Virus record (IMG/VR): IMGVR_UViG_3300045988_115457
Reading direction: 5' to 3' (one strand)
Source of the DNA: a virus
DNA length: 60,731 nt
Shown: positions 1-47,611 of the stretch, one piece after another
How the letters are laid out: each line of letters begins with the position of its first letter
Position numbering within the stretch: the stretch's first letter is position 1
Position numbers and translations under genes: made by a program
The notes under the pieces: generated by a model
What the model was told of the DNA's origin: nothing
Seen by the model: the letters and a program-made list of their open reading frames with translations, nothing else
The model's database searches: none

Positions 1-55
1 TTTTACAGCGAAAGCCTTTCTTATACATCTGTTTCCATGTCAAATTAGTTCCGTC
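1..55. repeat. 55-bp terminal direct repeat, identical to 60677..60731 (assembly overlap of a circular or permuted genome)
   Basis: Bases 1-55 (ttttacagcgaaagcc...ttagttccgtc) recur exactly as the last 55 bases of the window. Confidence 0.95.
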
Positions 56-154
56 CAACCAGTGCCTGACGCAATCTCTTCGGTAATATTTTTGAGTATT
101 CATCACAAGTGTACCATTTGGGTAGGTTATCATGTACATTATATCTTCACGCAT
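1..154 (-). CDS. small hypothetical protein whose ORF crosses the circular junction (5' part; continues at 60676..60645)
   Basis: ATG at 154..152, MREDIMYMITYPNGTLVMNTQKYYRRDCVRHWLDGTNLTWKQMYKKGFRCKK..., reading off position 1 and continuing in frame at the window end to a TAA at 60645-60647 (about 61 aa). Confidence 0.4.
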   Translation of the reverse strand, partial: MREDIMYMITYPNGTLVMNTQKYYRRDCVRHWLDGTNLTWKQMYKKGFRCK

Positions 155-176
155 ATTAGCTCCTTTCTTTCTTGTT

Positions 177-938
177 TTACTCTAATTGTTTATCGAAAAT
201 CTTAATACATTCAAATAAATATTTTGCCACTGTTGGATTTACCGCATTGCCGATACTTCCAACTCTGTGTGACCAATCGAAAACCCCATCATCATTTCTA
301 ACAGTGCTATGCGCTGGGATTTCAAGAATCCTTTTTGCGCAAGTATATCCAACACTCGTATCTGATGTCCACTCTTTAAATATCGAGTTAAAGCGTCCAT
401 CGTTGCAAATGTCGCCTTGTAATCCGATTTTGTCGGAGTAGGCAATAAGATAAAGTCTTTCCCTTTTGTGCGGGTATCCAAAAGCGTAGTTTGATATACA
501 TTGCCATTCCGCATTATACCCGATTTTGGAAAGGTCGCATAGGACTTGTTCGAGACCGGAAATAGTGAGAGCTGGCGAATTTTCAACGACGACGTATTTA
601 GGTCTAACTTCCCATATAACTCGGTACATCTCACTCCACAACCCCGAGCGCTTTCCTTTAATACCTTCACGTTTTCCGGCAACACTGATGTCTTGACACG
701 GAAATCCTCCACTAATGATGTCCACATATCGGAGTCCGGTTGCTTTTGTAATATCTGTGAATCTTTCTGCATGAGGAAATCTTGATTTTAATATTTCACC
801 TTGAAATTTTTCTATCTCACAATTCCACAAAGTGTCAATACCTGCCATTTCAGCCCCTAATTCAAAGCCGCCAATGCCGCTAAACAGAGAGCCATGTGTT
901 AGTTTACTTTGCTTCATATCTTTATTTGTTTTTCGCAA
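177..938 (-). CDS. dcm: DNA (cytosine-5)-methyltransferase
   Basis: C5-MTase motifs in order: FSGIGG (I), GFPCQDIS (IV), VVVENSP (VI), KRERLYLIAY (VIII), GNAVNP (X). Alternative start MKQSK at 917. Confidence 0.9.
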   Translation of the reverse strand: MRKTNKDMKQSKLTHGSLFSGIGGFELGAEMAGIDTLWNCEIEKFQGEILKSRFPHAERFTDITKATGLRYVDIISGGFPCQDISVAGKREGIKGKRSGLWSEMYRVIWEVRPKYVVVENSPALTISGLEQVLCDLSKIGYNAEWQCISNYAFGYPHKRERLYLIAYSDKIGLQGDICNDGRFNSIFKEWTSDTSVGYTCAKRILEIPAHSTVRNDDGVFDWSHRVGSIGNAVNPTVAKYLFECIKIFDKQLE

Positions 939-1068
939 ATCCTTGATAATTCTTCAAGAACTTGCAAGGTTTAATTAATATTATCCATCAGGTGGTTCGC
1001 TATCGCATACACCACCAGGTAAAATAAGATGTTCACTCCTAGGAGAAGGAGGATGTTTAAGAGTATTC

Positions 1069-1734
1069 TCATCTGCGGGAAGATCCTTTCAATTCGATTA
1101 CATTAAACATTTCATTAATGCGATCAGCGATATATGCACCATATCGATCCTGAATCTCTTCTATAGAAAGATTGGTCGTTATATGAGTTTTACACTCGTA
1201 TCTCAATTCATATCGACATTGAAGAATATACTGCATAACATTCAACTCCGTACCAAAATGCTTAGAAGGAACGGGCTCCCTTCCTAATTCATCAAAACAG
1301 ATCGTCCTAGGGATTCCACCATTGTAAGTATACAGTTCCAAATAATCCCGTCCTTTCATGGAGAACCCAGTGGCAACATAAGAGGCGGAATCAATTCTGA
1401 ATCCTCCAATGGGATAATCCCCGGCATCACGTCCTCCAATAAACCATAAGTATTTATTTAGAATTTGCATTATAGTTGATTTACCGGTCCCGTAATCTCC
1501 TGTTAGCAAAAGGCCTTTCCCAGCCCCCGAATCACCTTCTGCATAGAGAAATATATCATTCATTATCTTTCTAAAAGCCCCTTCAACTTTAAATCCCGGA
1601 CAAACAAAGCGGCAGCATTCAGCAAACACTTCCGCTCGTCTCTTCTTGTCATTTATCGATGTTGTAGGTGGCAGTTGTGCGGATAACAGCTTTCCTATCG
1701 GAATCGGAGTTACCGGCCTTATCCTTGTTTCCAT
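1069..1734 (-). CDS. DnaC/IstB-like AAA+ ATPase (helicase loader)
   Basis: Walker A GDYGTGKST, Walker B ICFDELG. Sits directly downstream of the replication-initiator-like gene. Its N-terminus overlaps that gene by 86 nt. Confidence 0.75.
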   Translation of the reverse strand: METRIRPVTPIPIGKLLSAQLPPTTSINDKKRRAEVFAECCRFVCPGFKVEGAFRKIMNDIFLYAEGDSGAGKGLLLTGDYGTGKSTIMQILNKYLWFIGGRDAGDYPIGGFRIDSASYVATGFSMKGRDYLELYTYNGGIPRTICFDELGREPVPSKHFGTELNVMQYILQCRYELRYECKTHITTNLSIEEIQDRYGAYIADRINEMFNVIELKGSSRR

Positions 1735-2410
1735 ACTTTTTTTCTGTTTGATAATTATTTCTTTCCCATGTTCTCACTGCTGCTTTCCAGTCTTTCATTT
1801 TAGAGCGGCCAACCATCCATCCGTTAGAAGTGTAATGATCCATCCATCTTTGCGGATCAACATCATTTTTTCTCTCCATGCAATACGCAGAAACTTCTTC
1901 AAAAGAAGGAGGAACAAATTGTTTATTTTTTGAGGTTTCCCCTATATTATCTTTTAGTTTAGTTTCTATTTTAGTTTTATATATATAGTCTGGCGCATTG
2001 GTTGGCTGATTGGTTCCCATATTGGTTGGCAGATTGGCTGGCGCATCTACTGTCTCTTGGGCTGGCTTATCTACCGGAATATTTCCGGTAGTTGAGGGTG
2101 AATTTGAATTTTCAAAAGCTTTCTCAAAAGAATATAAACCTACAATCCTTTTGCTTTTACCAGACTTGTAATAAATCAACCCGGCATTAATTAGAGATAA
2201 CCTGGCACGGACTAAAGTTTTCTCGTCTATATTAAGAGCACAGCAGAGTTCGATATTCGAGCAACTGAAAACGTCCTCCCAACCCTCGCTGTTACAAACG
2301 GCAACTAATTCGTGGAATAGTGCCTGTTCGGTAGCGGTAAGCCGATTACGTCTTCGTGCTTTTCTCATTTTCTCTGTCAATGTATATCCGTCCATAAATT
2401 TAATACGCAT
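1649..2410 (-). CDS. phage replication initiation protein (DnaD-like / winged-helix N-terminus)
   Basis: N-terminal wHTH-like segment (LTATEQALFHELVAVCNSEGW...LVRARLSLINAGLIYY) and a C-terminal FVPPSFEEVSAYC...WMDHYTSNGW module typical of phage replication proteins. Start taken at MRIKF (2410). Confidence 0.55.
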   Translation of the reverse strand: MRIKFMDGYTLTEKMRKARRRNRLTATEQALFHELVAVCNSEGWEDVFSCSNIELCCALNIDEKTLVRARLSLINAGLIYYKSGKSKRIVGLYSFEKAFENSNSPSTTGNIPVDKPAQETVDAPANLPTNMGTNQPTNAPDYIYKTKIETKLKDNIGETSKNKQFVPPSFEEVSAYCMERKNDVDPQRWMDHYTSNGWMVGRSKMKDWKAAVRTWERNNYQTEKKYGNKDKAGNSDSDRKAVIRTTATYNIDK

Positions 2411-2567
2411 GAATACAGTTTCTTTTGCTGTCGGCAACAAACCGACGGTTGAAGAAACTACAATAAACTACTCGTGGATTACCTTTCTCGGTTGGAATTA
2501 TTTGCCCGTTGTTGCATTTTGCACAGGTGTCCGGGCGGATAATATGCTTGTCGGATTTCTTTTTCAT
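2400..2567 (-). CDS. small Cys-containing hypothetical protein (55 aa, below the ORF-track cutoff)
   Basis: My own translation: MKKKSDKHIIRPDTCAKCNNGQIIPTEKGNPRVVYCSFFNRRFVADSKRNCIHAY. It fills an otherwise empty gap, and its stop overlaps the next gene's ATG. Confidence 0.3.
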   Translation of the reverse strand: MKKKSDKHIIRPDTCAKCNNGQIIPTEKGNPRVVYCSFFNRRFVADSKRNCIHAY

Positions 2568-2573
2568 ATATTT

Positions 2574-2975
2574 TCATTTTAAATAATCTGTTACTTCAGC
2601 TATAAACTCCTCCAAAGAACGGCAGACAACATATTTATTCCCTACAGATTCAACCGCTTTCTGCCATTCCTTTTGTATAGGCTTTTGGTATTCACCCGGT
2701 CTTTTCATCTCTATACATAAAGCACCATAGAAACGATTACTTTTAAGCAAGATCAAATCTGAAACCCCAGCAAGCATACCCTCTTCCTTCATATAGGCAC
2801 CGTTTCTTGCACTTCTCCTTGCTGCGTTGGGTATGGCAAATAGAATGTTTTTTAACTGGGGATATTGGAAGCGAAACCATTGAATACAAGATGCTTGTAT
2901 CTGATGTTCCTCACCTTTCGGCTTTTTGCGGATGTTCTTTCCGCAATACTGGGCTTTCATTTCTTCGAATGTCAT
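2574..2975 (-). CDS. VRR-NUC domain nuclease
   Basis: PD-(D/E)xK-type core GVSDLILL...ALCIEMKRPG in a 133-aa protein. ATGA overlap with the downstream gene. Confidence 0.8.
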   Translation of the reverse strand: MTFEEMKAQYCGKNIRKKPKGEEHQIQASCIQWFRFQYPQLKNILFAIPNAARRSARNGAYMKEEGMLAGVSDLILLKSNRFYGALCIEMKRPGEYQKPIQKEWQKAVESVGNKYVVCRSLEEFIAEVTDYLK

Positions 2976-3250
2976 GGCAATTTTGATTTTATTTCATTGA
3001 GAAGCGTTTCGTTACTCGTATAATATCCAACACCTGCTATATCACACAGGAATCTTCTTAAATCTTCCGGAGAGTTGAAATTTACAGGTTGATCTCCAAA
3101 AGCTACTACACGATTTCCTTTTCTATAAACTCTATGTCCCCGCTTCTCAACTTCTTTAATTAGCTCATCGTCGTCACACTCTTCAAGAATTTCATCAACG
3201 TAATCGTCAAGGTCTACTTCAACCTCTGTCATTATTTCTACGGTTCTCAT
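2972..3250 (-). CDS. hypothetical protein (acidic N-terminus)
   Basis: 92-aa ORF translationally coupled to its neighbours. No recognisable motif. Confidence 0.6.
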   Translation of the reverse strand: MRTVEIMTEVEVDLDDYVDEILEECDDDELIKEVEKRGHRVYRKGNRVVAFGDQPVNFNSPEDLRRFLCDIAGVGYYTSNETLLNEIKSKLP

Positions 3251-3387
3251 AATTTCTTTGAAGTTTCTTTCTAGTTTTACGAATCATATCTTCATCTCTC
3301 GAATTATATCCCCTAATGAGGATTTCTGACGTTTTCAAGCACCGGACTATCGTCTGGTATTCTTGTTTGGTGATTGTTATTTTCATG

Positions 3388-3538
3388 TGGTGATGGCAGG
3401 ATTCGAACCTGCATGATAGGAGTTATTTTTGCTGTTACATTTAAAACAGCCATGCCCGTTTATTTTTACAACCTTAGCCTAGGGTTAACCTATCTATAAA
3501 CATGTCACTTTAGCGTCTACTAATTTCGCCACATCACC
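3388..3538 (-). ncRNA. tRNA-like RNA A (151 nt): class-II tRNA frame with a 100-nt insert in place of the anticodon arm
   Basis: Minus strand: GGTGATG-TG-GCGAAATTAGTAGACGC...[100 nt]...GCAGG-TTCGAAT-CCTGC-CATCACC-A-CCA. Acceptor pairs 7/7, T loop is canonical, CCA is encoded. I found no 5-bp stem with a 7-nt loop. Confidence 0.55.
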
Positions 3539-3775
3539 ATGTTCGCCCGCCAATCTTCACAGACAGGCAGGCTGGGGTAAAAAGGTTAACAAAGCTATCT
3601 TAACAGCTCACTCTTGCGGATTATAGCTCTACCGGTTACAATAGTATCTTCCGTATTGTGAGACAATGTACTTTGTTTAATGCCTATCTGATCTTCGGAC
3701 AAATGCCGGAAGATACCCGTTACCGAACTGAAATAATAGTTCCGCTTTTCGAAGATCAGGTAGACATGGATTACT
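3539..3775 (-). promoter_or_regulatory. structured non-coding leader upstream of tRNA-like A
   Basis: 237 nt without an ORF. Two perfect 10-bp helices (3688-3697/3750-3759 and 3644-3653/3707-3716), all built on ATCTTC/GAAGAT, plus the shared box GTCTGTGAAGAT (3553-3564, minus strand). Confidence 0.35.
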
Positions 3776-4003
3776 TTAGTTTTTCACATTATTTTCACCA
3801 AACTTATGTTCTTGGCACCAGTTTGATTTCCCGATCTTGAAACCACCAATACCACAACGTAGATTCTTCTCACGCTCCCAATAACTCCCAGGTATGATAG
3901 CGGGTTCTTTCACTATTTCACTTGTAAAGTGAAGACAATTGCTACAGCATGGGCATTTCTTCTGAAACCCTTGCTTTTCTCTGTTTTCTGACTGTTTACT
4001 CAT
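3776..4003 (-). CDS. small Cys-rich (zinc-ribbon-like) protein
   Basis: 75 aa with CPCCSNC near the N-terminus and later C...C residues. Confidence 0.5.
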   Translation of the reverse strand: MSKQSENREKQGFQKKCPCCSNCLHFTSEIVKEPAIIPGSYWEREKNLRCGIGGFKIGKSNWCQEHKFGENNVKN

Positions 4004-4050
4004 TTTGCTTTATTTTTATCTCAAAACTTCCAAATAACAGCTATTTGGAA

Positions 4051-4488
4051 TCAAATGTAATTTTTGTTTCTTTGGACCTCTATCTCCATTAATTGCAATA
4101 GTCGATCTTCGTCGGGACTAGGAAGATATATTCCTGCTTCCCCAGAACTCCAGTTTCTAAAACGAGTAATTGCGTTACTCATTTCTTCTGTATCTAGTTC
4201 AGCGGAACTGCGTAGAACTTTGATGTTACCCAAATACTTATCAGAAACTTCCTTTATGAATATGTCTTTATTGCATAGTATCTTAAAATACTTTTGCTTT
4301 ACATATTCTAAGGTATTGCCTGTCTCACAGGCAAAATACCCTAAAATGACATGCAAATACCGGTTTTGTTTGTCGGTGCGTATCGGCTTCTTTTCTATAA
4401 GTTCTACTATTTTCCCGTTTTTAACAAGCAAAGCGGAACGGGTTTTAAACTGTTCCGCCTGCAATGGATTAGATAGATCGTATAACAT
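4051..4488 (-). CDS. ninB: NinB/Orf-like recombination mediator
   Basis: RTDKQNRYLHVILGYF resembles lambda NinB RSLDQNRKLWACLGDV. Size and position in a recombination module fit. Confidence 0.5.
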   Translation of the reverse strand: MLYDLSNPLQAEQFKTRSALLVKNGKIVELIEKKPIRTDKQNRYLHVILGYFACETGNTLEYVKQKYFKILCNKDIFIKEVSDKYLGNIKVLRSSAELDTEEMSNAITRFRNWSSGEAGIYLPSPDEDRLLQLMEIEVQRNKNYI

Positions 4489-4490
4489 AT

Positions 4491-4802
4491 TTAAAATGGC
4501 AAATCATCTGCAGGAGAAACACAGGGAGCTGAATCAACCTGTTCCATACTTGGAGCACTTGGTTGTGGATTATAAGTTTGCAAATCACCCAAGAAATAAT
4601 TTACCCCATCTTTCCTTTCTTCCTTCTTAGGGGAACAGGAGACATAGTGCGTGTAAGTGTTACTTCCAAATGTAGCAGGTTCTTTACGCTCACCTATCCA
4701 TATATTTAGGTAAATACGCTCTTTACCATCTTTACACATTACCTTTTTCATCTGCTCACGGGGAATTTCCGAAAGGCAGATACTACCAAATAAGCTACTC
4801 AT
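4491..4802 (-). CDS. putative single-stranded DNA-binding protein
   Basis: 103 aa ending in the SSB-type acidic tip ...PADDLPF. Lies between the NinB-like and Rad52-like genes. Confidence 0.4.
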   Translation of the reverse strand: MSSLFGSICLSEIPREQMKKVMCKDGKERIYLNIWIGERKEPATFGSNTYTHYVSCSPKKEERKDGVNYFLGDLQTYNPQPSAPSMEQVDSAPCVSPADDLPF

Positions 4803-4806
4803 ATTA

Positions 4807-5286
4807 TTACTTTTTAAATGTTATACTATACGATGTTGTACTTTGTTTAGATGGAGGATTTAAGGTAAAAACCTCTCCACTATCTTCATCAATTTCCGCT
4901 TTAGGTTTTGAAATTGCTTTTAAATATTCCTCCCTTTCTTTACATTGCTGTTCTATATATTCCCTTTGTTTAATAAGACGATTATAAACTGGATCGTTGC
5001 AAACGGAATAATCATATTTTATACCTGTTTCTTTTAATTGCAAAATAGCACCATTATAGCATGGACGCTCTCCTTTCCCATACTTCTCACATTCTATTAT
5101 AACAGCATCTTTTATTTCTCCACTTTTTAAAAATGCATTAATTGTTTCTGATAGACTTTTCATTTGTATAACCGCATCAATCGGATTTATATCACCATCA
5201 ATAACTTTGGAAATAAAAGCATTAGCCATTTTTTTTTGTTCCGTCTTGGAAGATGGAATTCTGTTGATTATTAGATCATTACTCAT
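4807..5286 (-). CDS. hypothetical protein
   Basis: 159-aa ORF with a 4-nt overlap with the upstream annealase gene. Confidence 0.65.
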   Translation of the reverse strand: MSNDLIINRIPSSKTEQKKMANAFISKVIDGDINPIDAVIQMKSLSETINAFLKSGEIKDAVIIECEKYGKGERPCYNGAILQLKETGIKYDYSVCNDPVYNRLIKQREYIEQQCKEREEYLKAISKPKAEIDEDSGEVFTLNPPSKQSTTSYSITFKK

Positions 5287-5951
5287 TGTAGATTATTATT
5301 TACTTTATATTGGTAATAATTTTCTGAAATCTTATTTATATCATCATTTGTACATCTATAATTCTTTTCTATCAAATTAATTATAGAAAAACGTTGTTTA
5401 TTTTCTCTTGCAAAAGATTCGTTCTTATAAATCCATTTCATCAAATCTTCTCTTCCAAGAAGAGATGCGTTTAAAACTTTACGATTATCATTTTCTGTTT
5501 GTGGTTTATTATATTTGGTAGAATCATTGTCCCAATACACATCAGCTGCCATACCCAAAGCCTTACAAGAAACAGATATGGCGTCAGTTAAAGCCATTTT
5601 ATAACATTCGTCTGACGTATATGCACCATTCTTTTCATTGGCAACAAATGAAGCTCCTCCAACCCCCTGTATTCCTTCGCTCCACTCTCCATTATATTTG
5701 ACGAAAAGGTTGATATGCACAAAACTTGATATTTCTCCATTTGCACCATGTTCATTCCACATTCTTATAATTTCATAACGCCAACCAAATCCACAAGGTC
5801 CAAACTGTTCTGTTAGAGTTTTAATTCTCCACATAGGATTGATATCTGTCTTTCCTTTTAAACGACCTGCTGAAATTGTTTTTTTAGCATTGTCTGGAAC
5901 TTGCCTTATCTTATCGTAAAGTTCAAGACAATTATCATTCCATTCTTTCAT
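5283..5951 (-). CDS. Rad52/Sak-family single-strand annealing protein
   Basis: DINPMWRIKTLTEQFGPCGFGW and DAISVSCKALGMAADVYW resemble phage Rad52-like recombinases. Confidence 0.65.
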   Translation of the reverse strand: MKEWNDNCLELYDKIRQVPDNAKKTISAGRLKGKTDINPMWRIKTLTEQFGPCGFGWRYEIIRMWNEHGANGEISSFVHINLFVKYNGEWSEGIQGVGGASFVANEKNGAYTSDECYKMALTDAISVSCKALGMAADVYWDNDSTKYNKPQTENDNRKVLNASLLGREDLMKWIYKNESFARENKQRFSIINLIEKNYRCTNDDINKISENYYQYKVNNNLQ

Positions 5952-6017
5952 ATCTTATATTATTTAAAGTGGTTTAAATTGCTCCCGGAGTGCCGATCAA
6001 AGCAAACCGGGATTAAG

Positions 6018-6695
6018 TTAAGATAGTCTGCGGATAATATCACCGCCATACGAATTTTTAGTCAGTTCTATAAACTCATAGACGGTAAACCTATCATTAT
6101 CTACATCTATACCTTTATCCGTGCAAAAAGCTTCTCTTCCAGCCTTGCAACTCCCAGTGAGTACATGATGCCATATAAACAAGTCTTTAGCAGAATACTT
6201 TTTAGAAAAGTCAGAGAAATGTTCTTTAAACTTAAGGATCCTTTCCTCTTCTGTACTATCATCATAAAGCTTTTCTTGCAAAGATTCAAATGCCTCATGT
6301 AGAGTATTACCATGAGAAAATTGATTATTCTCTTTTACTATAAAACAGGGAGTAAGAGATAAGTCAGAATGAAGGATAAAACCTTTTGCGATATTACCTT
6401 TTACATTTGTGATAATAGTAGGTATATTATCTACTACATAAATAGGATTTCCATTTATGGATTTTACGCCATAGCCAGAGCCATAGCCAGAGCCAGAGCC
6501 ATAGCCAGAGCCATCGCCATAGCCATAGCCAGAGCCATCGCCAGAGCCAGAGCCAGAGCCATAGCCAGAGCCAGAGCCATAGCCATAGCCAGAGCCATAG
6601 CCAGAGCCAGAGCCATAGCCAGAGCCATAGCCAGAGCCATCGCCAGAGCCAATATTTAGAAACTGTTTTATTCTATCTTCCATTACCTTGCCCAT
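6018..6695 (-). CDS. protein with an N-terminal [G/S]Y[G/S] low-complexity region and a globular C-terminal domain
   Basis: Residues ~17-76 are GSGDGSGYGSGYGSGSGYGSGYGYGSGSGYG..., followed by a ~150-aa non-repetitive domain. Confidence 0.75.
   Translation of the reverse strand: MGKVMEDRIKQFLNIGSGDGSGYGSGYGSGSGYGSGYGYGSGSGYGSGSGSGDGSGYGYGDGSGYGSGSGYGSGYGVKSINGNPIYVVDNIPTIITNVKGNIAKGFILHSDLSLTPCFIVKENNQFSHGNTLHEAFESLQEKLYDDSTEEERILKFKEHFSDFSKKYSAKDLFIWHHVLTGSCKAGREAFCTDKGIDVDNDRFTVYEFIELTKNSYGGDIIRRLS
6468..6650. repeat. hexanucleotide tandem repeat (GCCAGA/GCCATA units) encoding the Gly-Ser-Tyr tract
   Basis: About 180 bp of gccatagccagagcc... units. All three alternative frames give periodic pseudo-ORFs. 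Confidence 0.9.
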
Positions 6696-6964
6696 ACCAG
6701 TACACTTTCAATAGATTTTACAGCTTTATCCGAACACGGGATAATTTCAATCACATCCAGAATCTCTATCTCTGGAACCGTAACTGTGAATTTGCATTCA
6801 GATGGGGTAGTCGTACCATTAACTGCTAATTGAGATATACTAGCAGCACCATCCCAATACCACAATCTACGACAATTTGCGAGCTTAACCTCACTACCAT
6901 TTCTTTCTACTAACTCTCCGAAAAATACACCGGAACGATCTCCTCTTACAATTACTTTTTTCAT
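6683..6964 (-). CDS. hypothetical protein
   Basis: 93-aa ORF. Its stop region overlaps the start of the downstream gene. Confidence 0.65.
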   Translation of the reverse strand: MKKVIVRGDRSGVFFGELVERNGSEVKLANCRRLWYWDGAASISQLAVNGTTTPSECKFTVTVPEIEILDVIEIIPCSDKAVKSIESVLVWAR

Positions 6965-6994
6965 AACTATATATATTATTAAAGTGGTTAATCG

Positions 6995-7030
6995 AAATAA
7001 ATAAAGCGCCTATCCTCACGAACCGACGCT
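6995..7030 (-). terminator. conserved terminator-like module (copy 1): closing GC pairs, CGGTTCGTGAGGATAG loop, U tract
   Basis: Minus strand AGCG-TCGGTTCGTGAGGATAGG-CGCT-TTATTTATTT. Same core at 54890-54924 with covarying closing pairs (GGC/GCC). Confidence 0.35.
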
Positions 7031-7181
7031 TCCAAAATCGTATTTAAACGACAAAATTTTGTTCCTAGATACCGAATCAACGGACACTAGGATAGTATAG
7101 AACATGTAAAACTCAAATACAGAGGCTTGCACTCTACGGACTCCTTTAAATCCGGCATTGGGTTAATTAATAAATGAATGG

Positions 7182-7463
7182 TTATTTACGATTCTTTAAA
7201 ATCTCCAAAACCTTTTTCTTGTCAATCATTATTGTACGGCCTTCTTGAATTATAGCTTTGTCTATTTTACCACTCAATTTGAGATTTTTAGCTTTACAAA
7301 TAGAGCAGTCTAATAAAGAAGCGAGTCCTTTATATCCATATACATACTCTTCCTCTTCAACTATTTGGGGCTTTGGAACTAAGCTTTCAAATAATTTTTT
7401 AAATTCTCCAACTGTTAATTTAAACAGAGGGGTATCATCCAATATTCTTTCTACTCCAATCAT
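7182..7463 (-). CDS. putative helix-turn-helix DNA-binding protein
   Basis: YGYKGLASLLDCSICKAKNLKLSGKIDKAIIQEGRTIMIDKKK resembles excisionase/MerR-type HTH proteins of Bacteroidales elements. Confidence 0.4.
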   Translation of the reverse strand: MIGVERILDDTPLFKLTVGEFKKLFESLVPKPQIVEEEEYVYGYKGLASLLDCSICKAKNLKLSGKIDKAIIQEGRTIMIDKKKVLEILKNRK

Positions 7464-7465
7464 TG

Positions 7466-7825
7466 TTAAATCCTCCTTACTCTTACAATGGTTTCTATTC
7501 TGGTTCTTCTTCCCCTCCTTATATCACCTTGTTCATGTAAAAGCGAGAAGGAAAATATACCAATAAACACCCAAGCGGCATACGCACGAACTACAGGTGA
7601 AAAATCAAAAGAAAACTCTATACCAGAAAGTCTTTCATAAAATTTACGGCACAGCTCACGGCCGTTTTTAACTCGAAGAATTTGAAAAGCTTTCTGTAAC
7701 TGATTATTAATAGTGCTAGATGCTCTACACTTTATTTCAGCAATTTCTTCTTTCTCCAGTCCTGAAATGTACATTTGAGTAGTAAGTTCACACTCTGGAG
7801 TAAGTTCAGTCAATATTCTTTGCAT
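7466..7825 (-). CDS. LuxR/sigma-70 region-4-like HTH regulator with a hydrophobic C-terminal segment
   Basis: LTTQMYISGLEKEEIAEIKCRASSTINNQLQKAFQIL is an HTH_LuxR-like pattern. C-terminal AAWVFIGIFSFSLL. Confidence 0.5.
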   Translation of the reverse strand: MQRILTELTPECELTTQMYISGLEKEEIAEIKCRASSTINNQLQKAFQILRVKNGRELCRKFYERLSGIEFSFDFSPVVRAYAAWVFIGIFSFSLLHEQGDIRRGRRTRIETIVRVRRI

Positions 7826-7843
7826 AACCGTTAAACTTTAAAA

Positions 7844-8086
7844 TTACTTCAATCGAATAATAGAAGTATATCCCGGATGCTCTGTTTTTGAAACCCGGAA
7901 CATCAGATCCATGTTGGCTTTTAATTTATTGACCAGCCTGGCTTCCCGATTTCGCCTAACAGCTTCCGCTTTAATACCGGTGTGCCGTGATTCGTCAAAA
8001 GGCACTTTATAAATATCTCCCACTTTCATCATATCGAATAACTTAGTTGTTCGATATTTTTCGTCAACTATAATTTCTTTTTCCAT
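7844..8086 (-). CDS. hypothetical protein
   Basis: 80-aa ORF in operon context. Confidence 0.55.
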   Translation of the reverse strand: MEKEIIVDEKYRTTKLFDMMKVGDIYKVPFDESRHTGIKAEAVRRNREARLVNKLKANMDLMFRVSKTEHPGYTSIIRLK

Positions 8087-8110
8087 AATATTTTTATTTA
8101 TATTTATTTG

Positions 8111-8179
8111 TGGACAATAAAGGAATCGAACCTTTTTCTCACCCGTGCGAGTGCGTTCTAACCATTAAACTAATTGCCC
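8111..8179 (-). ncRNA. tRNA-like RNA C (69 nt): canonical acceptor, D and T arms, but the anticodon arm is a 5-bp stem capped by a 4-nt loop
   Basis: GGGCAAT-TA-GTTT-AATGGTTA-GAAC-G-CACTC-GCAC-GGGTG-AGAA-AAAGG-TTCGATT-CCTTT-ATTGTCC-A. It is 3 nt short of a tRNA exactly where the anticodon would be. Confidence 0.55.
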
Positions 8180-8266
8180 GTTTGCCTGTATCACGTCAGA
8201 TACAGGACTTAATCGACACGAATTTTCACACATAAAACAGCTATTCTCCCGAACCGCATACCTATA

Positions 8267-8428
8267 TCACTTTTCTCTCTTTAGTCTTTTTTGGTGCTTT
8301 TCCATATATATGGAACATAATGCAAATACAGCAAACGAAAGCCAGAAGACAATATTCATTTCGTTTGCAAGCAATATTGTTAATGCGAACGATATTGCCC
8401 AAATTGCTAATAGTGGAGTACGTTTCAT
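8267..8428 (-). CDS. small membrane protein (53 aa)
   Basis: MKRTPLLAIWAISFALTILLANEMNIVFWLSFAVFALCSIYMEKHQKRLKREK: two hydrophobic helices and a basic tail. Start chosen to avoid tRNA-like B. Confidence 0.4.
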   Translation of the reverse strand: MKRTPLLAIWAISFALTILLANEMNIVFWLSFAVFALCSIYMEKHQKRLKREK

Positions 8429-8453
8429 AAGATTAATTATTTGATTATTATTG

Positions 8454-8558
8454 TGGATAAGCCCGGGGTCGAACCGGGAATGGTACATGTTCTAATTTTA
8501 AGGAGTATCGCACTCACACTTCCCTTGTTTCAGCGTCTACCAATTCCGCCACTTATCC
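8454..8558 (-). ncRNA. tRNA-like RNA B (105 nt): class-II tRNA frame with a 54-nt non-canonical middle
   Basis: GGATAAG-TG-GCGGAATTGGTAGACGC...[54 nt]...CCCGG-TTCGACC-CCGGG-CTTATCC-A. Acceptor pairs 7/7. D arm is near-identical to bacterial tRNA-Leu. No recognisable anticodon stem-loop. Confidence 0.55.
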
Positions 8559-8647
8559 TTATTAAAAAGTGCACTATCTTCACAGACCGTACACTATACA
8601 ACACAAACACAAAATAAAAATTACAAAACAAAAATTTGTCTATGGAA

Positions 8648-9043
8648 TTATTTTTCAATATTGATTTTTACACCATTGATTATCCCCAAATGCCTTAAAT
8701 ACACTTCATCTGGATAGACATATCTTTCATCACCGCCATGTATCCTAATGGTATGGGAACCGTCTATATGAATGTCCGTTCTAGCATATCCTGACGCAAA
8801 CTTTTCGCCAACAAATACAAGTCTTTCAATATGAGTAAATGCATCTGAAACGCAAACAATATGGCACCCATCTGTACGAATAAGGTGTTTGTACTCTGGG
8901 AAAATCCTTTCCTTACATTCTTCAAGTTCTCGTACAATATCAACATCACCACCAAATCTTCGACCTTTATGAATCGGTTCTGATAACTCATAAAATCTTT
9001 GATATTTGGTAGTTTCTACCAATTTGGCTATAATTTCTTTCAT
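8648..9043 (-). CDS. hypothetical protein
   Basis: 131-aa ORF. Confidence 0.65.
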   Translation of the reverse strand: MKEIIAKLVETTKYQRFYELSEPIHKGRRFGGDVDIVRELEECKERIFPEYKHLIRTDGCHIVCVSDAFTHIERLVFVGEKFASGYARTDIHIDGSHTIRIHGGDERYVYPDEVYLRHLGIINGVKINIEK

Positions 9044-9412
9044 TTTTATAAATTTAAAGTGGTTGTGTCCTACCCGATTCTCGCTATCGGCTGCCGTTCA
9101 ATCCGTCAGTAGGGCTATATTGTAATCAGCGTACGGACGCCTAACCCCGTTTTCTTACTGATAAAGACGATGTTTTTCAGACTGATTTTTTTTCGATATA
9201 TTACTTACTCACGTTGCTTCCTTCCGCTCATATCATCGCTGGTTGGCTATTACGCTATACTCCGCATCGGCTATACTGCTTATCTGCGCAGGCTACTTTA
9301 ACGTGCCCTGAACACGGCTTCATTTTTGAGGGTTAAGCCTCCCATCCCGAATTAGGATTCATCGGTTTACCGTTGTGCTCCGAAAGCGTTTCGCTCGCTT
9401 CTTTCGTAGATT
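9044..9412 (-). other. 369-bp non-coding, relatively GC-rich region (structured RNA or replication origin candidate)
   Basis: No ORF in any frame. Local helices (e.g. CGAAAG.../...CTTTCG, CCGAT-AGCGAGA-ATCGG), three GGCTA(T)(T)AC direct repeats (9244-9300) and a T8/A-T tract (9186-9210). Confidence 0.3.
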
Positions 9413-9598
9413 CTAACCTAACAGAGCTTCGTATTCACTTATCAAATTGAAAAGGTAATTCATAATCCATTTCTTTGGCTTATTAAAAGCGGTCAATAAC
9501 TGAACGGTCTTTTCATCTCTCTTCTCCAGATCCTTCACGTATTGATGAAGGAAAGCCAATTTCTCATTAATCTGTTCTGTACTCATAATTACCTCCAA
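9413..9598 (-). CDS. hypothetical protein
   Basis: 61-aa ORF overlapping the upstream ORF by 10 nt. Confidence 0.5.
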   Translation of the reverse strand: MEVIMSTEQINEKLAFLHQYVKDLEKRDEKTVQLLTAFNKPKKWIMNYLFNLISEYEALLG

Positions 9599-9858
9599 GA
9601 GCTATCATAGTTAGTATATTTATCGGCAAAGAACACCTTCAATACATTTCCTTTGTTTGCATTGAACACAGGTTTGAAAGACTTCTTTTCCTCTTCAATC
9701 TCTCTGTATTCTTTTTGCTGTCTTTTTGCCAAGAACCAAGCCTGTTTCAATGCTTCACTCAAAGAGATACGACGATACGCTTTCAAAACATGAGCGTGTT
9801 TCATTATCTCACTGTTATTGAATTTTCCGGTTTCTGTCAAAAATGTAAATGCGTTCAT
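9589..9858 (-). CDS. hypothetical protein
   Basis: 89-aa ORF. Confidence 0.55.
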   Translation of the reverse strand: MNAFTFLTETGKFNNSEIMKHAHVLKAYRRISLSEALKQAWFLAKRQQKEYREIEEEKKSFKPVFNANKGNVLKVFFADKYTNYDSSWR

Positions 9859-10045
9859 AATCGTATCTTTTTAATTTTAATATAAATGTACTATTGCGAA
9901 TCATTTCAAAGTTGCGTATCTTTGTAACGTTTCGATGATGCAAATATACTGATTTATTTTCAGCAATCAAGAGTTTTACTGAATTTATTTCAGCACAAAA
10001 CATTATTTAACTATTAGATCGGACTATACATTATTATATATAACT

Positions 10046-10381
10046 ATGGACTTGAAAGACTTTGTCAGCGAAACACTGAAAGAGATAATTGCAGGTGTTA
10101 AGGAGGCGCAAGAATACGCAAAAGAACATGGAGCGGTAATTAACCCTACTAAGTTTGGGGTTGTCGCACCAAAAGCCATAATGAATAAAGATAACGATGA
10201 AGTTACGTCCATACAGCGCATTGACTTCTCATTATCATTGCAGCAATCTTATGCAGCTGACGGGAAGGTAAGCATAGGAGTCCTCGATATAGGAAAAGTA
10301 GAAGGAAAATACGAAAATATTAAAGAAAACAGAGTAAATTTCAGCGTTTTAATTACACTCCCATGTGGCGATACCCATTAG
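10046..10381 (+). CDS. stand-alone small protein, possibly trypco2-like (conflict-system adaptor fold)
   Basis: N-terminal helix LKDFVSETLKEIIAGVKEAQEYAKE, then beta-rich IQRIDFSLSLQ...DGKVSIGVLDIGKVEGKYENIKENRVNFSVLITLP. The pattern matches my recollection of the trypco2 family. Opposite strand to its neighbours. Confidence 0.35.
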   Translation: MDLKDFVSETLKEIIAGVKEAQEYAKEHGAVINPTKFGVVAPKAIMNKDNDEVTSIQRIDFSLSLQQSYAADGKVSIGVLDIGKVEGKYENIKENRVNFSVLITLPCGDTH

Positions 10382-10559
10382 GAAGTGCATTGGCATTGAA
10401 CTTCCCGTTTTTGATATAATTAGAAAGTTCTTCTGAAATTCGTATGGCTGTTTCTGCTTCTGTATTGTTCCCGACAAGATTGCTATTCAAAACCATTAGA
10501 AGTATTCTTTTCCTTCTTCTTTGAGCGATGCGATTCTTGAAAATAGAAAATAGTTTCAT
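10353..10559 (-). CDS. first small ORF of the early leftward operon (68 aa, basic)
   Basis: MKLFSIFKNRIAQRRRKRILL... Start chosen at an internal Met. Overlaps the 3' end of the convergent plus-strand gene. Confidence 0.35.
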   Translation of the reverse strand: MKLFSIFKNRIAQRRRKRILLMVLNSNLVGNNTEAETAIRISEELSNYIKNGKFNANALPNGYRHMGV

Positions 10560-10752
10560 AACAATAAAAATAAAGCGACCAACTCCAAAGTTGCGGTTGG
10601 AAAGGTCTAATAAAACGAAATACCGCAATATATAGTTATTAAAATAAAAATATCCGCAATAGGTTGCAGCTACTACGGATACCATATATTAAACCTCTTG
10701 TGAGGAAAGTTTAACCACTTTGTCTCTGTAACATCTGCAACTTGTTACGATG

Positions 10753-10787
10753 CAAAGATACAGAAATAAATTCAGTATGACAACAAA
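10753..10787 (-). promoter_or_regulatory. candidate early (leftward) promoter, Bacteroides -33/-7 type, overlapping the repressor start codon
   Basis: Minus strand TTTG (10787-10784), 23 nt, then TATCTTTG (10760-10753). Flanked by TTGCGG/CCGCAA/CTGCAA half-site repeats at 10586-10745. Confidence 0.35.
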
Positions 10788-11280
10788 AGATAGATTAATA
10801 ACATTTCTTGCATATATAAATATAAGTCAAGGAAAATTCGAAAAGGGGGTTGGTTTATCAACTGGTTTTGTTAATAATGTAGGAGACAGTATAAGAAAAT
10901 CTACTCTTGATAAAATCTCCTCTGTATATCCTGAATTAAATACAGCATGGCTACTCACAGGCGTTGGAAATATGATAAATGAAAATAAAAACAACGTAGG
11001 AAGAGACAACTATGGTGTGCAAGGAAACGGTTCTCAAAATATTTCAGGCAACATGGTCAACGTAACTATGCCCGAATCCGGTACACAAAAAATTATTAAG
11101 CCCACTGGAGAAGTTGAAATACAGCGACTAGACCCAAGCGACAAATCAAACTCGGGAGAGCTCGATAGGCTACAACAGCGTATTCAGGATTTAGAAAGAA
11201 TTATATCTGAAAAAGACGCTACAATAAAGTCTAAGGATGATTTAATATGTGTTTTAAAAGATATGCTCAATAGGCAGTAG
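10777..11280 (+). CDS. CI-like HTH repressor with a coiled-coil C-terminus
   Basis: MTTKDRLITFLAYINISQGKFEKGVGLSTGFVNN...WLLTGVGNM (XRE-type HTH typical of Bacteroidales prophage repressors). Same strand as, and upstream of, the integrase. Confidence 0.65.
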   Translation: MTTKDRLITFLAYINISQGKFEKGVGLSTGFVNNVGDSIRKSTLDKISSVYPELNTAWLLTGVGNMINENKNNVGRDNYGVQGNGSQNISGNMVNVTMPESGTQKIIKPTGEVEIQRLDPSDKSNSGELDRLQQRIQDLERIISEKDATIKSKDDLICVLKDMLNRQ

Positions 11281-11467
11281 TATATTAGGTTTAGGTTATG
11301 TTTTATTTGTAAAATAATAGAACAGGCAAATTACAAAAAAGTTGAAGAAAACCAATAGAGAAAGTAACAAATTATCGTAATTTAAACGCAATAAGCAACA
11401 ATAGAATACATTAATCAACAAAAATGCTATATATTAAAACTAACTGACGATATTTTATAGAAAAGCT

Positions 11468-12742
11468 ATGAATATAAAAAGAAACTGCATATTCCTTTTA
11501 GACAAAGAGAAAGACAAACTGGATGCAAAAATTCGCTACAGGATAAAGTGGGACGGAAATACGGTTGCATTTAACGTCGGGCATCGTATAGACATAGACA
11601 AATGGATACCAGATGCACAGCGATGCAAGAATAACACAACCCATGGAATCAAGAAAACGCATTCCTCTATTATTAATAGGGATATTCAAAAATATCAAGA
11701 TATATGCGATACAGTCTTTTTTTATTTCGAACAGCAAAACATATCTCCAAGTCCTGAAGAATTTAAGAATGAGTTTAACCAAAGGCTTGGCAAAAAAGTG
11801 AAGCCGGAACGGACTATTTTTGAATATCATATAGAGTTTATGATAGAACAAGGTCACGAAAGCCAATGGAGTGAATCCACATACAAAGAGCATAGAACAA
11901 TACAACGTAGACTGAAAGAGTTTGCTCCTAAATTAGAGTTTGAGGATTTAACCCAGAAAGGGCTTTCCAAATTTGTTGACTACCTGCAAACTATACAAGT
12001 CAATTCAAAGAAAAAGGGATTAAAGAATTCTAGTATAAGAAAGAACTTAGACAATTTAAAGTGGTTTCTCCGGTGGGCTACCAATAAAGGATATAACAAA
12101 GAAATGGCTTTTACGACCTTTCAGCCCAAATTGAAGGAGGTTAAGAATACGATCGTTTACCTTACATGGGAAGAATTGATGACGGTATATAATTTCAAGG
12201 CTCCTATAACTTGTTCTCACCTAGAAAAAGTGAAAGACGTATTTTGTTTCTGCTGTTTTACTTCATTGAGATATTCAGACGTTGCAAATCTTAAAAGGAC
12301 AAACGTATTTGAAGATCACATACAGGTAACGACTATCAAGACTTATGAGACATTAAGGATCGAATTAAACGACTATTCAAAAGCAATATTAGAGAAATAT
12401 AAAGACGAGACATACGAAGATAATTTAGCTCTCCCTGTTATATCTAACCAAAAGATGAATGATGGTCTTAAAGAGTTAGGAGAATTATGCGGCATAGATG
12501 AGCCTGTATCTATCACTTATTATAAAGGAGGGGAACGATATGATGAAACTTATAAGAAATACGAGCTTTTGACTACTCACTGCGGAAGAAGGACTTTTAT
12601 AAGCAATGCCATCATGTTAGGTATTTCCCCTGAAATTGTAATGAAATGGACTGGACATGAAGATTACCGAACGATGAAGCCATACATAGCCATCGCGGAC
12701 AAAGCTAAGAAAGATGCGATGGATTTATTCAATAAAAAATAG
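11468..12742 (+). CDS. int: tyrosine-type site-specific integrase (Bacteroides type)
   Basis: Catalytic residues in order: FTSLRYSD (R), HCGRRTF (HxxR), WTGHEDYRTMKPY (H...Y). 424 aa with a long N-terminal arm-binding region. Confidence 0.9.
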   Translation: MNIKRNCIFLLDKEKDKLDAKIRYRIKWDGNTVAFNVGHRIDIDKWIPDAQRCKNNTTHGIKKTHSSIINRDIQKYQDICDTVFFYFEQQNISPSPEEFKNEFNQRLGKKVKPERTIFEYHIEFMIEQGHESQWSESTYKEHRTIQRRLKEFAPKLEFEDLTQKGLSKFVDYLQTIQVNSKKKGLKNSSIRKNLDNLKWFLRWATNKGYNKEMAFTTFQPKLKEVKNTIVYLTWEELMTVYNFKAPITCSHLEKVKDVFCFCCFTSLRYSDVANLKRTNVFEDHIQVTTIKTYETLRIELNDYSKAILEKYKDETYEDNLALPVISNQKMNDGLKELGELCGIDEPVSITYYKGGERYDETYKKYELLTTHCGRRTFISNAIMLGISPEIVMKWTGHEDYRTMKPYIAIADKAKKDAMDLFNKK

Positions 12743-17255: not shown

Positions 17256-17440
17256 TCGGGGGTTCTTTTTACTCTACCCCCAAAAGAGCTGCATTTGTTA
17301 ACGATAACCGGCCTTCTACTTTACCGGATAAACTTAGTGCTTAGTATTAATTAATGTATCATTTTGCCCTCCTTTCTTTATAAACCTTTTTCCAACGGAA
17401 ATTGTTATATAGGTGAAACTTAAACTTTTCATACCGGAAA

Positions 17441-17457
17441 CGGTCTGTGAAGATAGT
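17441..17457 (+). repeat. 17-mer CGGTCTGTGAAGATAGT, exact inverted copy of the box upstream of tRNA-like B (8573-8589)
   Basis: Exact 17/17 match to the reverse complement of 8573-8589. A 12-nt core GTCTGTGAAGAT also lies upstream of tRNA-like A (3553-3564). Confidence 0.8.
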
Positions 17458-17468
17458 TAGTCCGGTAA

Positions 17469-47566: not shown

Positions 47567-47611
47567 GTAGCAAGCAAGGATTCGAACCTCTCACGCCTTA
47601 CCGACTTGCTG
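47567..47611 (-). ncRNA. tRNA-like element D: acceptor stem plus T arm only (minihelix or tRNA 3' remnant)
   Basis: CAGCAAG-TCGGTAAGGCGTG-AGAGG-TTCGAAT-CCTTG-CTTGCTA-C. T loop is canonical, acceptor pairs 6/7, T stem is weak (3 WC + 1 GU). No D or anticodon arm. Confidence 0.4.

Follow-up and report, generated by a model that had tools for sequence, protein, structure and literature searches.

A tRNA-framed, non-decoding RNA gene of a temperate Bacteroides/Phocaeicola phage in an apparently undescribed family of interchangeable RNA cassettes

The virus record IMGVR_UViG_3300045988_115457 comprises 60,731 nucleotides (nt) of DNA, referred to here as the window. The window represents a temperate siphophage or prophage, with two tyrosine integrases, an SPP1-type portal, a large terminase, Rha/KilAC/Bro antirepressors and DNA methylases. 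Within its recombination and replication module, and in the same orientation as the module genes, lies a transfer RNA (tRNA)-like gene that we call element A, with an exonuclease gene and a NinB/Orf homologue upstream, and a Holliday-junction-resolvase-like gene, an O-like initiator and a DnaC-like loader downstream. An earlier, sequence-only reading of this stretch had described element A as a class II tRNA frame with a 100-nt branched insert in place of an anticodon arm. The comparisons described below indicate that element A is a genuine RNA gene of a temperate Bacteroides/Phocaeicola siphophage, conserved and non-decoding, and that it belongs with many other interchangeable, tRNA-framed RNA cassettes to a large family that is apparently undescribed.

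With respect to its frame, element A is matched from end to end by the Rfam tRNA model (RF00005; 35.3 bits against a gathering threshold of 29, E = 0.0011 for the window), and the acceptor stem, D arm and T arm are all present in cloverleaf register. Specifically, the 5′ end reads GGTGATG-TG-GCGAAATTAGTAGACGC on the minus strand and the 3′ end reads GCAGG-TTCGAAT-CCTGC-CATCACC-A. The acceptor and T stems make a coaxial stack of 7 + 5 bp, the T loop has U54, C56 and A58, and the distance between D arm and T arm is exactly 100 nt (RNA positions 27–126). The frame, the seven acceptor pairs, the tRNA-Leu-like D arm, the canonical T arm and the length of the interior are all as the sequence-only reading had them. 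Two of its details had to be given up. The encoded CCA is not there: CATCACC is followed by A-CATG, and what looked like CCA is made up of C71, C72 and A73. The D loop, said to contain GG, has AG in element A and GG in most relatives. The D arm of element A carries G13A and G18A, with G19 present; that of the relatives, GCGGAATTGGTAGACGC, is identical to the D arm of Escherichia coli tRNA-Leu(CAG). Identity elements for leucyl-tRNA synthetase (LeuRS), namely the D arm and A73, are partly present, G18 being replaced by A.

What the frame lacks is an anticodon arm, as had been stated. The Rfam alignment skips model positions 27–43, which make up this arm, and places 73 + 24 nt as insertions; element A has no 5-bp stem with a 7-nt loop (U33, anticodon, purine 37); and ARAGORN at default stringency makes no call on it, whether introns are allowed or not. 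The only hairpin at the anticodon position has four A-U pairs and an 8-nt loop, GUGACAUG. A decoding tRNA was rejected on these grounds, given the missing arm, the verdict of ARAGORN and the lack of a usable anticodon.

The strongest evidence for a functional RNA is comparative, and has to be, since the single-sequence fold of element A is of unremarkable stability (z = −1.55). Homologues of the same type (A-type, 148–151 nt) were collected from IMG/VR contigs with a DNA pattern anchored at the D arm and at the beginning of the interior, or cargo; the alignment holds seven distinct sequences of 94% identity, and a metagenome scan for further A-type variants gave one new variant (L347). Across the seven aligned variants, 99.6% of 245 pair cells hold standard pairs and every helix is kept. 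Compensatory double changes occur at four pairs, which are 5:68 and 7:66 of the acceptor stem and two in cargo hairpin 1. Seen at the level of the acceptor, GGTGATG/CATCACC stands against GGTGGTA/TACCACC in relatives, which amounts to two compensatory double changes plus changes of U-A to U-G. The remaining changes in the acceptor, cargo hairpin 2 and T arm turn G-C or A-U into G-U, so that pairing is kept on the minus-strand RNA only. In a control in which the 3′ partners were slid by 1–3 columns, pairing was 35–57% and compensatory pairs numbered 0–1. The strand-specific, G.U-compatible changes and the compensatory pairs together argue for selection on the RNA fold. Acceptor and T pairings are conserved among the homologues, and the intactness of all helices in every aligned variant bears out the earlier view that element A is no decaying pseudogene. 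The discriminator is A in five of the seven variants and G in two.

In terms of the interior, the variable arm of element A is expanded into a cargo of approximately 80 nt, folded as two hairpins that a closing helix surrounds, and all that remains of the anticodon arm is a hairpin without anticodon character; the TAAA/TTTA hairpin with its 8-nt loop and the GATAGG/CCTATC helix around the two hairpins read as previously claimed (Table 1). The hairpin that takes the place of the anticodon arm is unchanged in the seven aligned variants, and its outer pair is broken in the metagenome variant L347. In cargo hairpin 1 the compensatory changes are A-U to G-C and C-G to A-U, and the GCTAA of the loop is conserved. 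All variant changes in cargo hairpin 2 are G-C to G-U, fitting RNA pairing only, and this hairpin with its GCAAAAA tail is common to element A and a 167-nt type of relative. The GATAGG and CCTATC strands surround unrelated interiors in relatives of 118, 145, 186, 209 and 220 nt, whose constrained minimum free energy (MFE) folds contain the helix. A further long-range helix, P1 (RNA positions 35–41/82–88), is predicted both by the single-sequence MFE fold and by RNAalifold, and is near-invariant, with one break (L218). At the analogous position the 167-nt type has a 7-bp helix, AAGATGT/ACATCTT, that does not vary among its six variants. P1 crosses the GATAGG/CCTATC helix, and the A-rich strand lies at the position of pseudoknot loop 3. 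Given these crossing helices, the recurrence of GATAGG/CCTATC around differing interiors and the P1-like helix of the 167-nt type, a pseudoknot composed of P1 and GATAGG/CCTATC is a plausible model for the cargo.

Table 1. Features of element A, its upstream region and the other tRNA-like elements of the window.
Feature	Position	Strand	Remarks
Element A, tRNA-framed RNA gene	3388–3538	−	151 nt, G1 to A73-equivalent discriminator
Acceptor 3′ strand CATCACC + discriminator A (3388)	3388–3395	−	next bases CATG
T arm GCAGG-TTCGAAT-CCTGC	3396–3412	−	Rfam tRNA match and variant pair counts
Cargo hairpin 2, GCTGTT/AACAGC, 8-nt loop TTAAATGT	3431–3450	−	then A-rich strand 3421–3430
GGGCATG, 3′ strand of alternative long-range helix P1	3451–3457	−	partner CATGTTT 3498–3504
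Cargo hairpin 1, AACC/GGTT (+U.G), 9-nt loop CTAGGCTAA	3470–3486	−	2 compensatory pairs
GATAGG, 5′ strand of helix at base of expanded variable arm	3489–3494	−	pairs with CCTATC 3415–3420; invariant
Anticodon-arm substitute, stem TAAA/TTTA, 8-nt loop GTGACATG	3497–3512	−	partly overlaps alternative helix P1
D arm GCG-AAATTAGTAGA-CGC, tRNA-Leu type	3513–3529	−	read from sequence
Acceptor 5′ strand GGTGATG	3532–3538	−	7/7 pairs with CATCACC at 3389–3395
Spacer GAACAT between leader hairpin and G1, T at −1	3539–3544	−	relatives R-AACAT, AAAAT or AATAT before GG
Leader hairpin GCCTGCC[TGTCTGTGAAGATT]GGCGGGC	3545–3572	−	conserved 13–14-nt loop (G)GTCTGTGAAGAT(A), variable stem
TAGCTTTG, exact TAnnTTTG box	3590–3597	−	putative promoter of element A
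Element C, tRNA-Leu-like frame GGATAAG...CTTATCC-A	8454–8558	−	105 nt, 54-nt cargo
Element C leader hairpin GTGTAC[GGTCTGTGAAGATA]GTGCAC + T-run	8569–8594	−	
Minihelix-like element, cAGCAAG/CTTGCTa stem + T arm with GGTTCGAATCC	~47568–47611	−	no D or anticodon arm

The limits of the unit could be read from its surroundings. The A-type RNA is found downstream of the leader hairpin in the window and L215, immediately past an open reading frame (ORF) stop codon and lacking a leader in L207, L218, L211 and L221, in tandem tRNA-like arrays with 4–5-nt spacers (L209, L210, L214, L220), and ahead of at least three unrelated 3′ trailers; in each of these four unrelated contexts, similarity stops at G1 and at N73. 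Because the limits of conservation fall exactly there, we infer that the RNA is excised by RNase P and RNase Z, and the functional unit is, on this showing, the mature-tRNA span from G1 to the discriminator. The covarying frame and the coincidence of the unit ends with mature-tRNA ends fit two of the possibilities raised in the sequence-only reading, a tRNA mimic and an RNase P/RNase Z processing signal. Across the wider family, many relatives have approximately 50 nt after the unit and then a GC hairpin with a T-run, which suggests that these are stand-alone transcription units.

Upstream of element A, a TAnnTTTG box, the consensus of the Bacteroides −7 promoter box (sigma-ABfr promoters), precedes a leader hairpin, and the box lies at an equal distance upstream of this hairpin in most related loci. 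The leader loop is invariant, whereas the stems differ yet stay paired, often by way of strand-specific G.U pairs, and since so many stem pairs are G.U, the leader appears to fold as a hairpin at the RNA level on this strand. The window has three copies of it (3553, 8576 and 17444), compared with approximately 0.03 exact 11-mer matches expected by chance, and it recurs in at least 120 viral loci. It also precedes ordinary ORFs, running directly into them in L309 and L250, and is often followed by a T-run, resembling an intrinsic terminator; a search of Rfam gave no match to it. An empty slot, in which leader and AACAT would be joined straight to the trailer, would have pointed to a mobile insertion; a viral-contig scan for such slots gave only four chance matches. 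These occurrences indicate that the leader hairpin is a separate, more general structured RNA motif with covarying stems. A nut/put-like role in antitermination, or a role in processing, is offered as a lead only, and the GAACAT spacer would represent the RNase P 5′ leader.

The third copy of the hairpin, with the GGTCTGTGAAGATA loop (17433–17470, plus strand), lies just past the stop of a minus-strand ORF and has no tRNA-like element after it; the sequence behind it, ...ACCA-CATAAATAAG, looks like the 3′ end of a cassette with its trailer, and the copy is conserved in at least eight related contigs (L235, L252, L256, L267, L286, L291 and L299 among them). On the other side of element A, an ORF of 55 aa (3219–3386, minus strand) has its ATG directly after the discriminator. 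The homologous stretch in L096 has a frame-breaking indel, and the ORF is probably not coding. The same region holds two conserved hairpins, ACCAGAC...GTCCGGT and ATCCTC...GGGGAT.

When the locus is followed across phages, element A is seen to be one allele of a hypervariable cassette slot, with cargos and frames shuffled among phages. Its closed acceptor/T frame, its non-anticodon insert and its place in a conserved expression slot are the features by which the family is defined here, and more than 100 viral loci carry members, with lengths of 67–255 nt. When IMG/VR was scanned for the leader loop with AACATGG after it, at least 120 stretches were returned, and approximately 100 of the matches listed have the GG opening a closed acceptor/T-arm frame, with lengths of 68–255 nt and 49 distinct sequences. 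Over 2.3 Mb of related viral loci, a heuristic scan found 81 distinct framed elements in 43 sequence clusters, and ARAGORN called 53 tRNAs, of which 19 have 2-nt or 4-nt 'anticodons' (tc, tgcg and tgtg among them). In some exchanges the surroundings stay put. In L020, L037 and L096 the 60-nt leader is 97–100% and the downstream 400 nt are 90–99% identical to the window, and the slot holds an unrelated framed RNA of 189 or 114 nt; L062, L072 and L022 resemble the window over approximately 160–170 aligned downstream nt and have elements of 98, 153 and 144 nt. The second slot of the window, at 8454–8594, is equally variable, with different framed RNAs in L037, L070, L211, L096 and L268.

Cargo, frame and leader are also exchanged with one another. 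A 104-nt GGAGAAG cassette stands behind both leader types (L003, L224), the 167-nt cargo is found on three different acceptor/T frames and has compensatory changes of its own, and the A-type cargo, whose frame is GGTGATG/CATCACC in the window, is mounted on GGTGGTA/TACCACC elsewhere. Some other family members carry their insert in the anticodon stem, and no reconstructable anticodon arm was found in relatives with other cargos. No neighboring gene covaries with the cassette, the flanks being 90–100% identical while it changes, and Pfam and PHROGs scans of 40 window ORFs revealed no RNA-modifying, ligase, reverse transcriptase or SmpB-like gene. With regard to the frames themselves, 12 of the 40 that start with GG have G3:U70, compared with 0–3 G.U pairs at other stem positions. 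The T loops alternate between TTCGAAT and TGCAAGT, both of which keep U54, C56 and A58.

Several further observations were made on these relatives. TTCGAAT is replaced by TGCAAGT or TGCAAAT on otherwise identical frames (L002, L003, L004, L005, L215 and others); in the variant loop U55, the pseudouridine-55 site, becomes G, and G18 in the D loop is changed to A in some copies. A type of 131–132 nt (L053, L237, L270, L284) has a class I tRNA-Ala-like frame, with G3:U70 in some copies. Its extended anticodon stem holds a hairpin resembling a second T arm (GGGAGTTCGATTCTCTC) together with a segment resembling a D arm, an arrangement suggestive of a 'double-elbow' RNA. Most cassettes are bordered by CA(T) on both sides (AACAT|GG ... 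N73|CAT). The type-2 trailer (CATAAATGTGAGCCACACATAAATGG...; L001, L002, L004, L005 and others) has a direct repeat of CATAAATG flanking ...TGAGCCA, and this repeat looks like the 3′ end of an earlier cassette left by serial cassette replacement.

As for hosts, a scan of genome contigs with the leader pattern gave 80 matches, most of them by chance in unrelated taxa. Genuine-looking matches came from Bacteroides ovatus, B. salyersiae DSM 18765, Bacteroides spp., Phocaeicola and Bacteroidaceae, and among these genome matches a framed element was confirmed only in B. salyersiae (L197), a relative of 219 nt in the prophage of strain DSM 18765. The closest cultured phage is Bacteroides phage BS-TP2 (PQ571275.1, L359), with 74% identity over the portal and terminase genes. 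It has at least three framed elements (at approximately 13.70–13.81, 19.56–19.67 and 30.19–30.27 kb), whereas its GenBank record annotates no RNA gene. One of them lies in the gap between DUF2303 (NinB side) and NinG/Rap, syntenic with element A, and is preceded by a hairpin, GCCCG-GAAAGA-CGGGC, that is unlike the window leader and resembles lambda boxB. Another BS-TP2 element is preceded by a variant leader loop, CGTCCGTGAGGATA. BS-TP2 has been reported in 33.5% of 930 gut viromes, in a paper that mentions neither tRNA nor noncoding RNA (ncRNA) (PMC12694917), and the paper on phage BV01 likewise describes no tRNA-like RNA. We found no description of the family in the literature, although a partial overlap is possible with the unnamed 'tRNA-like' candidates in IMG/VR that a 2023 survey of viral structured RNAs lists (PMC10690425).

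The window holds other tRNA-like elements as well. The sequence-only reading had counted four aberrant ones and no canonical tRNA, which is broadly right, although the programs recover only part of the set: ARAGORN calls a single gene, at 8110–8179 on the minus strand with a 2-nt 'anticodon' (ca), and Rfam tRNA matches comprise this gene and element A. Element C, called by neither ARAGORN nor Rfam, and a minihelix-like element complete the four. The tRNA-like at 8110–8179 scores 51.1 bits and has a 6-nt 'anticodon' loop and the alanine identity set G3:U70 plus A73. A DUF2693-FD RNA motif (RF02926, 70.9 bits) lies at 9067–9115 on the minus strand, approximately 500 nt upstream of element C, and this short early-region stretch has three or four ncRNA genes. 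The minihelix-like element is located between an antirepressor gene and the portal gene.

Compared with known systems, element A resembles bacterial class II tRNA-Leu in its 7-bp acceptor, U8, Leu-type D arm, TTCGAAT T loop and A discriminator, as well as in having a long extra arm just 5′ of the T stem. It differs in the missing anticodon arm and in a branched variable arm of approximately 80 nt in place of approximately 13–15 nt. Transfer-messenger RNA (tmRNA; RF00023 and relatives) likewise has an acceptor/T domain closing a large, possibly pseudoknotted insert and no anticodon, and some family members share its G3:U70. Element A, in contrast, has U3:A70 and a true D stem, measures 151 rather than approximately 350 nt, and shows no conservation of a resume codon, a tag ORF or a stop. 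A tmRNA was rejected on the basis of U3:A70 in all seven variants, the lack of a conserved frame (ATG becomes ATA in L218), the lack of tmRNA-clan matches at E ≤ 5 and the silence of ARAGORN -m; a tmRNA match in L015 belongs to an unrelated phage, which had fitted the DNA search pattern by chance within a coding region. Nor do the cargos belong to a known RNA family, as judged by Rfam at E ≤ 5 over positions 1–12000 and at E ≤ 0.1 over 13 related loci. The only signal in the cargo searches was a sub-threshold match of the 98-nt type to a tmRNA end (28.1 bits, gathering threshold 47). Of the Rfam families that the sequence-only reading proposed to search, tRNA matched element A, and group I, ribozyme and tmRNA models gave no match to it at E ≤ 5.

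A different comparison is with the C4 RNA of phages P1 and P7 and the CI RNA of P4, temperate-phage immunity RNAs that are cut from a leader transcript by RNase P, lie upstream of early or antirepressor genes and have variable loops that differ between related phages. Element A shares with them small size, a temperate-phage origin, a place upstream of early genes, variable segments and, in the proposed model, the tRNA 5′-processing enzyme. C4 and CI act as antisense RNAs on targets within their own operon and lack a full tRNA D/T elbow, whereas element A has no complementary target longer than 12 nt in the phage. An antisense immunity RNA was rejected, as complementary matches in the whole window are at most 12 nt and AT-rich, and the downstream sequence is unchanged when the cassette changes; complementary 11-mers to element A number 10 in the window (own locus excluded), compared with approximately 4 expected under uniform composition.

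Non-decoding RNAs of tRNA shape are known from elsewhere. The stable RNAs C and D of phage T4 are tRNA-shaped, non-decoding and processed by tRNA enzymes. In the gammaherpesvirus-68 tRNA-microRNA-encoded RNAs (TMERs), the tRNA part is a processing handle for an attached functional RNA; their cargo hairpins come after the tRNA, whereas the cargo of element A is embedded within. Bacterial YrlA and related Y RNAs (PMC4201824) are also tRNA-shaped, non-decoding and handled by tRNA enzymes, with the difference that the tRNA-like module of YrlA is internal and the RNA ends form a Ro-binding stem. Rfam gave no match of element A to Y RNAs, T4 RNAs C and D or TMERs. The parallel in design is the engineered 'tRNA scaffold' of Ponchon and Dardel, in which a structured RNA placed in a tRNA body is reportedly trimmed by cell enzymes and protected by the fold. 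Architecture and proposed logic are the same, and element A would work most like a natural version of it. The scaffold is man-made and replaces the anticodon stem-loop, whereas the graft in element A is natural and mainly in the variable arm, and the cargos of the family are shuffled in evolution. We know of no evidence that YrlA, T4 RNAs C and D or TMERs form a hypervariable cassette family.

Taken together, these observations lead us to a model, on balance probable in our judgment, in which the tRNA shell is a chassis for processing and stability and the cargo is an effector acting in trans on a host or competitor factor. Transcription would start from the TAnnTTTG promoter and run through the conserved leader hairpin; RNase P would cut before G1, RNase Z or exonucleases would cut after N73, and CCA would then be added. 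The shell would provide processing, folding and nuclease resistance, and might be charged by LeuRS. The cargo would be the functional part and would act on a factor encoded away from the element. A host- or competitor-directed effector, for example a protein-binding decoy or aptamer, is favored because cassette evolution of this kind is typical of genes in phage–host or phage–phage conflict. More speculatively, the whole family may amount to a natural 'tRNA-scaffold display', in which dozens of folded cargos on host-trimmed shells are swapped among leader slots and frames as anti-defense or anti-competitor effectors; this broader proposal we put forward tentatively, as something short of probable.

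A number of points weigh against this model. The A-type alignment is shallow, and within it the hairpin substituting for the anticodon arm and the GATAGG/CCTATC helix are invariant, so that neither yields a covariation signal. RNAalifold favors P1, which competes with the cargo fold as drawn, and the stability of the single-sequence fold is, as noted, not exceptional. The 'effector cargo' is deduced from conservation and evolutionary pattern, and the hypervariability on which it draws could arise by recombination at the conserved D- and T-arm sequences with no diversifying selection. Processing by RNase P and RNase Z and addition of CCA are inferred only, from the positions of the unit ends. 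Finally, the retained aminoacylation identity elements, including the 12 of 40 frames with G3:U70, fit a charged tRNA mimic at least as well.

Such a mimic would be charged by LeuRS and act through its aminoacyl end, be it on EF-Tu and the ribosome in the manner of tmRNA, by donating leucine to enzymes that depend on aminoacyl-tRNA or sequestering it from them, or by titrating the synthetase. LeuRS and the alanyl- and seryl-tRNA synthetases (AlaRS, SerRS) are anticodon-independent. The Leu-type D arm of the relatives, the predominance of A at the discriminator, the restriction of the family mainly to frames that are Leu-like or have G3:U70 with A73 (the AlaRS identity set), the concentration of G.U at 3:70 and the retention of T-loop and elbow nucleotides all speak for charging. 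Nonetheless, the discriminator is A, G or T among near-identical copies, 3:70 switches among A-U, G-U and G-C within single types (the 144- and 82-nt types), and element A itself has G18A; no tag ORF is conserved, and neither ARAGORN -m nor Rfam finds a tmRNA. Charging would also leave the structure of the cargos, their conservation within types and their hypervariability between types unexplained. We consider this explanation unlikely.

To a similar degree we doubt that element A is a decoy or sponge for tRNA-targeting defenses or toxins (anticodon nucleases, acceptor-end modifiers or enzymes acting on class II tRNAs), for which the shell would be the bait and the abnormal anticodon region would be uncleavable. 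Phage tRNAs that evade tRNA-targeting defenses are a documented precedent (PMC10264068). The phage and its relatives carry several tRNA-likes with abnormal anticodon loops (2-nt and 4-nt 'anticodons') and have almost no canonical tRNAs, and a hypervariable site in the early region suits anti-defense genes. Bait for an anticodon nuclease should, however, display the target anticodon loop, and element A displays none; large cargos that are conserved within types and show compensating changes are needless for a simple decoy; and the hosts here have no known tRNA-targeting system.

Cis-acting punctuation is improbable to a greater degree. Here the tRNA shape would serve only for cutting of the early transcript by RNase P and RNase Z, to part the leader from the mRNA behind it or to fix the 5′ end of that mRNA, the excised RNA being functionless, and tRNA–mRNA co-transcripts and mitochondrial tRNA punctuation are precedents. 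Element A has a promoter-proximal leader before it and early genes of its own strand after it, as punctuation would predict, and an ATG comes directly after the discriminator, but the 55-aa ORF that starts at this ATG is broken in L096, many relatives have their own terminator after the unit or stand in a pure tRNA-like array, and a minimal tRNA-like would suffice where a conserved and covarying cargo is found. Very little weight is left for a DNA-level feature, such as a recombination or integration site, or for a decaying tRNA pseudogene. Integrases commonly target tRNA genes, two integrases are encoded in the window and cassettes are clearly exchanged by recombination; element A lies far from both integrase genes, however, and neither the strand-specific G.U-compatible changes and compensatory pairs nor the intactness of all helices in every variant is expected of such sequences. 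An intron-bearing tRNA gene spliced to a decoding tRNA, suggested in the sequence-only reading, is scarcely credible despite the tRNA-like ends and the group I introns hosted by tRNA-Leu genes of some bacteria. ARAGORN -i is silent at default stringency. When forced (-ps80), it proposes a tRNA-Lys(ttt) with a 3/5-paired anticodon stem, an unpaired 26-nt 'variable loop' and an intron of 60 nt placed at 32/33 instead of 37/38, a model that would split the conserved cargo hairpin 2. Searches for group I introns and ribozymes gave no match at E ≤ 5 over 1–12000, nor at E ≤ 0.1 in relatives with inserts of up to approximately 200 nt. The 100-nt interior is far under group I size, relatives with other cargos do not yield an anticodon arm either, and, as regards protein-spliced introns of the bulge-helix-bulge type, bacterial hosts have to our knowledge no archaeal splicing endonuclease.

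Returning to the model of a tRNA chassis with an effector cargo, the family bears on how phages of gut Bacteroides may use structured RNA. Non-decoding tRNA-likes have so far been isolated cases, whereas here the tRNA shape apparently serves as an all-purpose chassis on which many different structured RNAs are mounted, and the phages concerned rank with the most prevalent of the human gut. Standard annotation does not reveal these genes: ARAGORN misses them, and in BS-TP2 they are left unannotated. Even if element A is a processing handle with a stable ncRNA and nothing more, its nucleotide-precise boundaries and the shuffling of frame and cargo represent an unusual way for RNA genes to evolve. 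Should the cargos be effectors, they would constitute a new reservoir of RNA-based phage–host interaction modules as well as of naturally optimized RNA-expression scaffolds for Bacteroides, and the same slot with different cargos offers a ready set of natural 'swap' experiments. Taken in its entirety, the cassette system stands a realistic chance of being a new class of accessory genes in phages; the tRNA-scaffold display, if true, would be such a class and the RNA counterpart of the hypervariable anti-defense protein loci.

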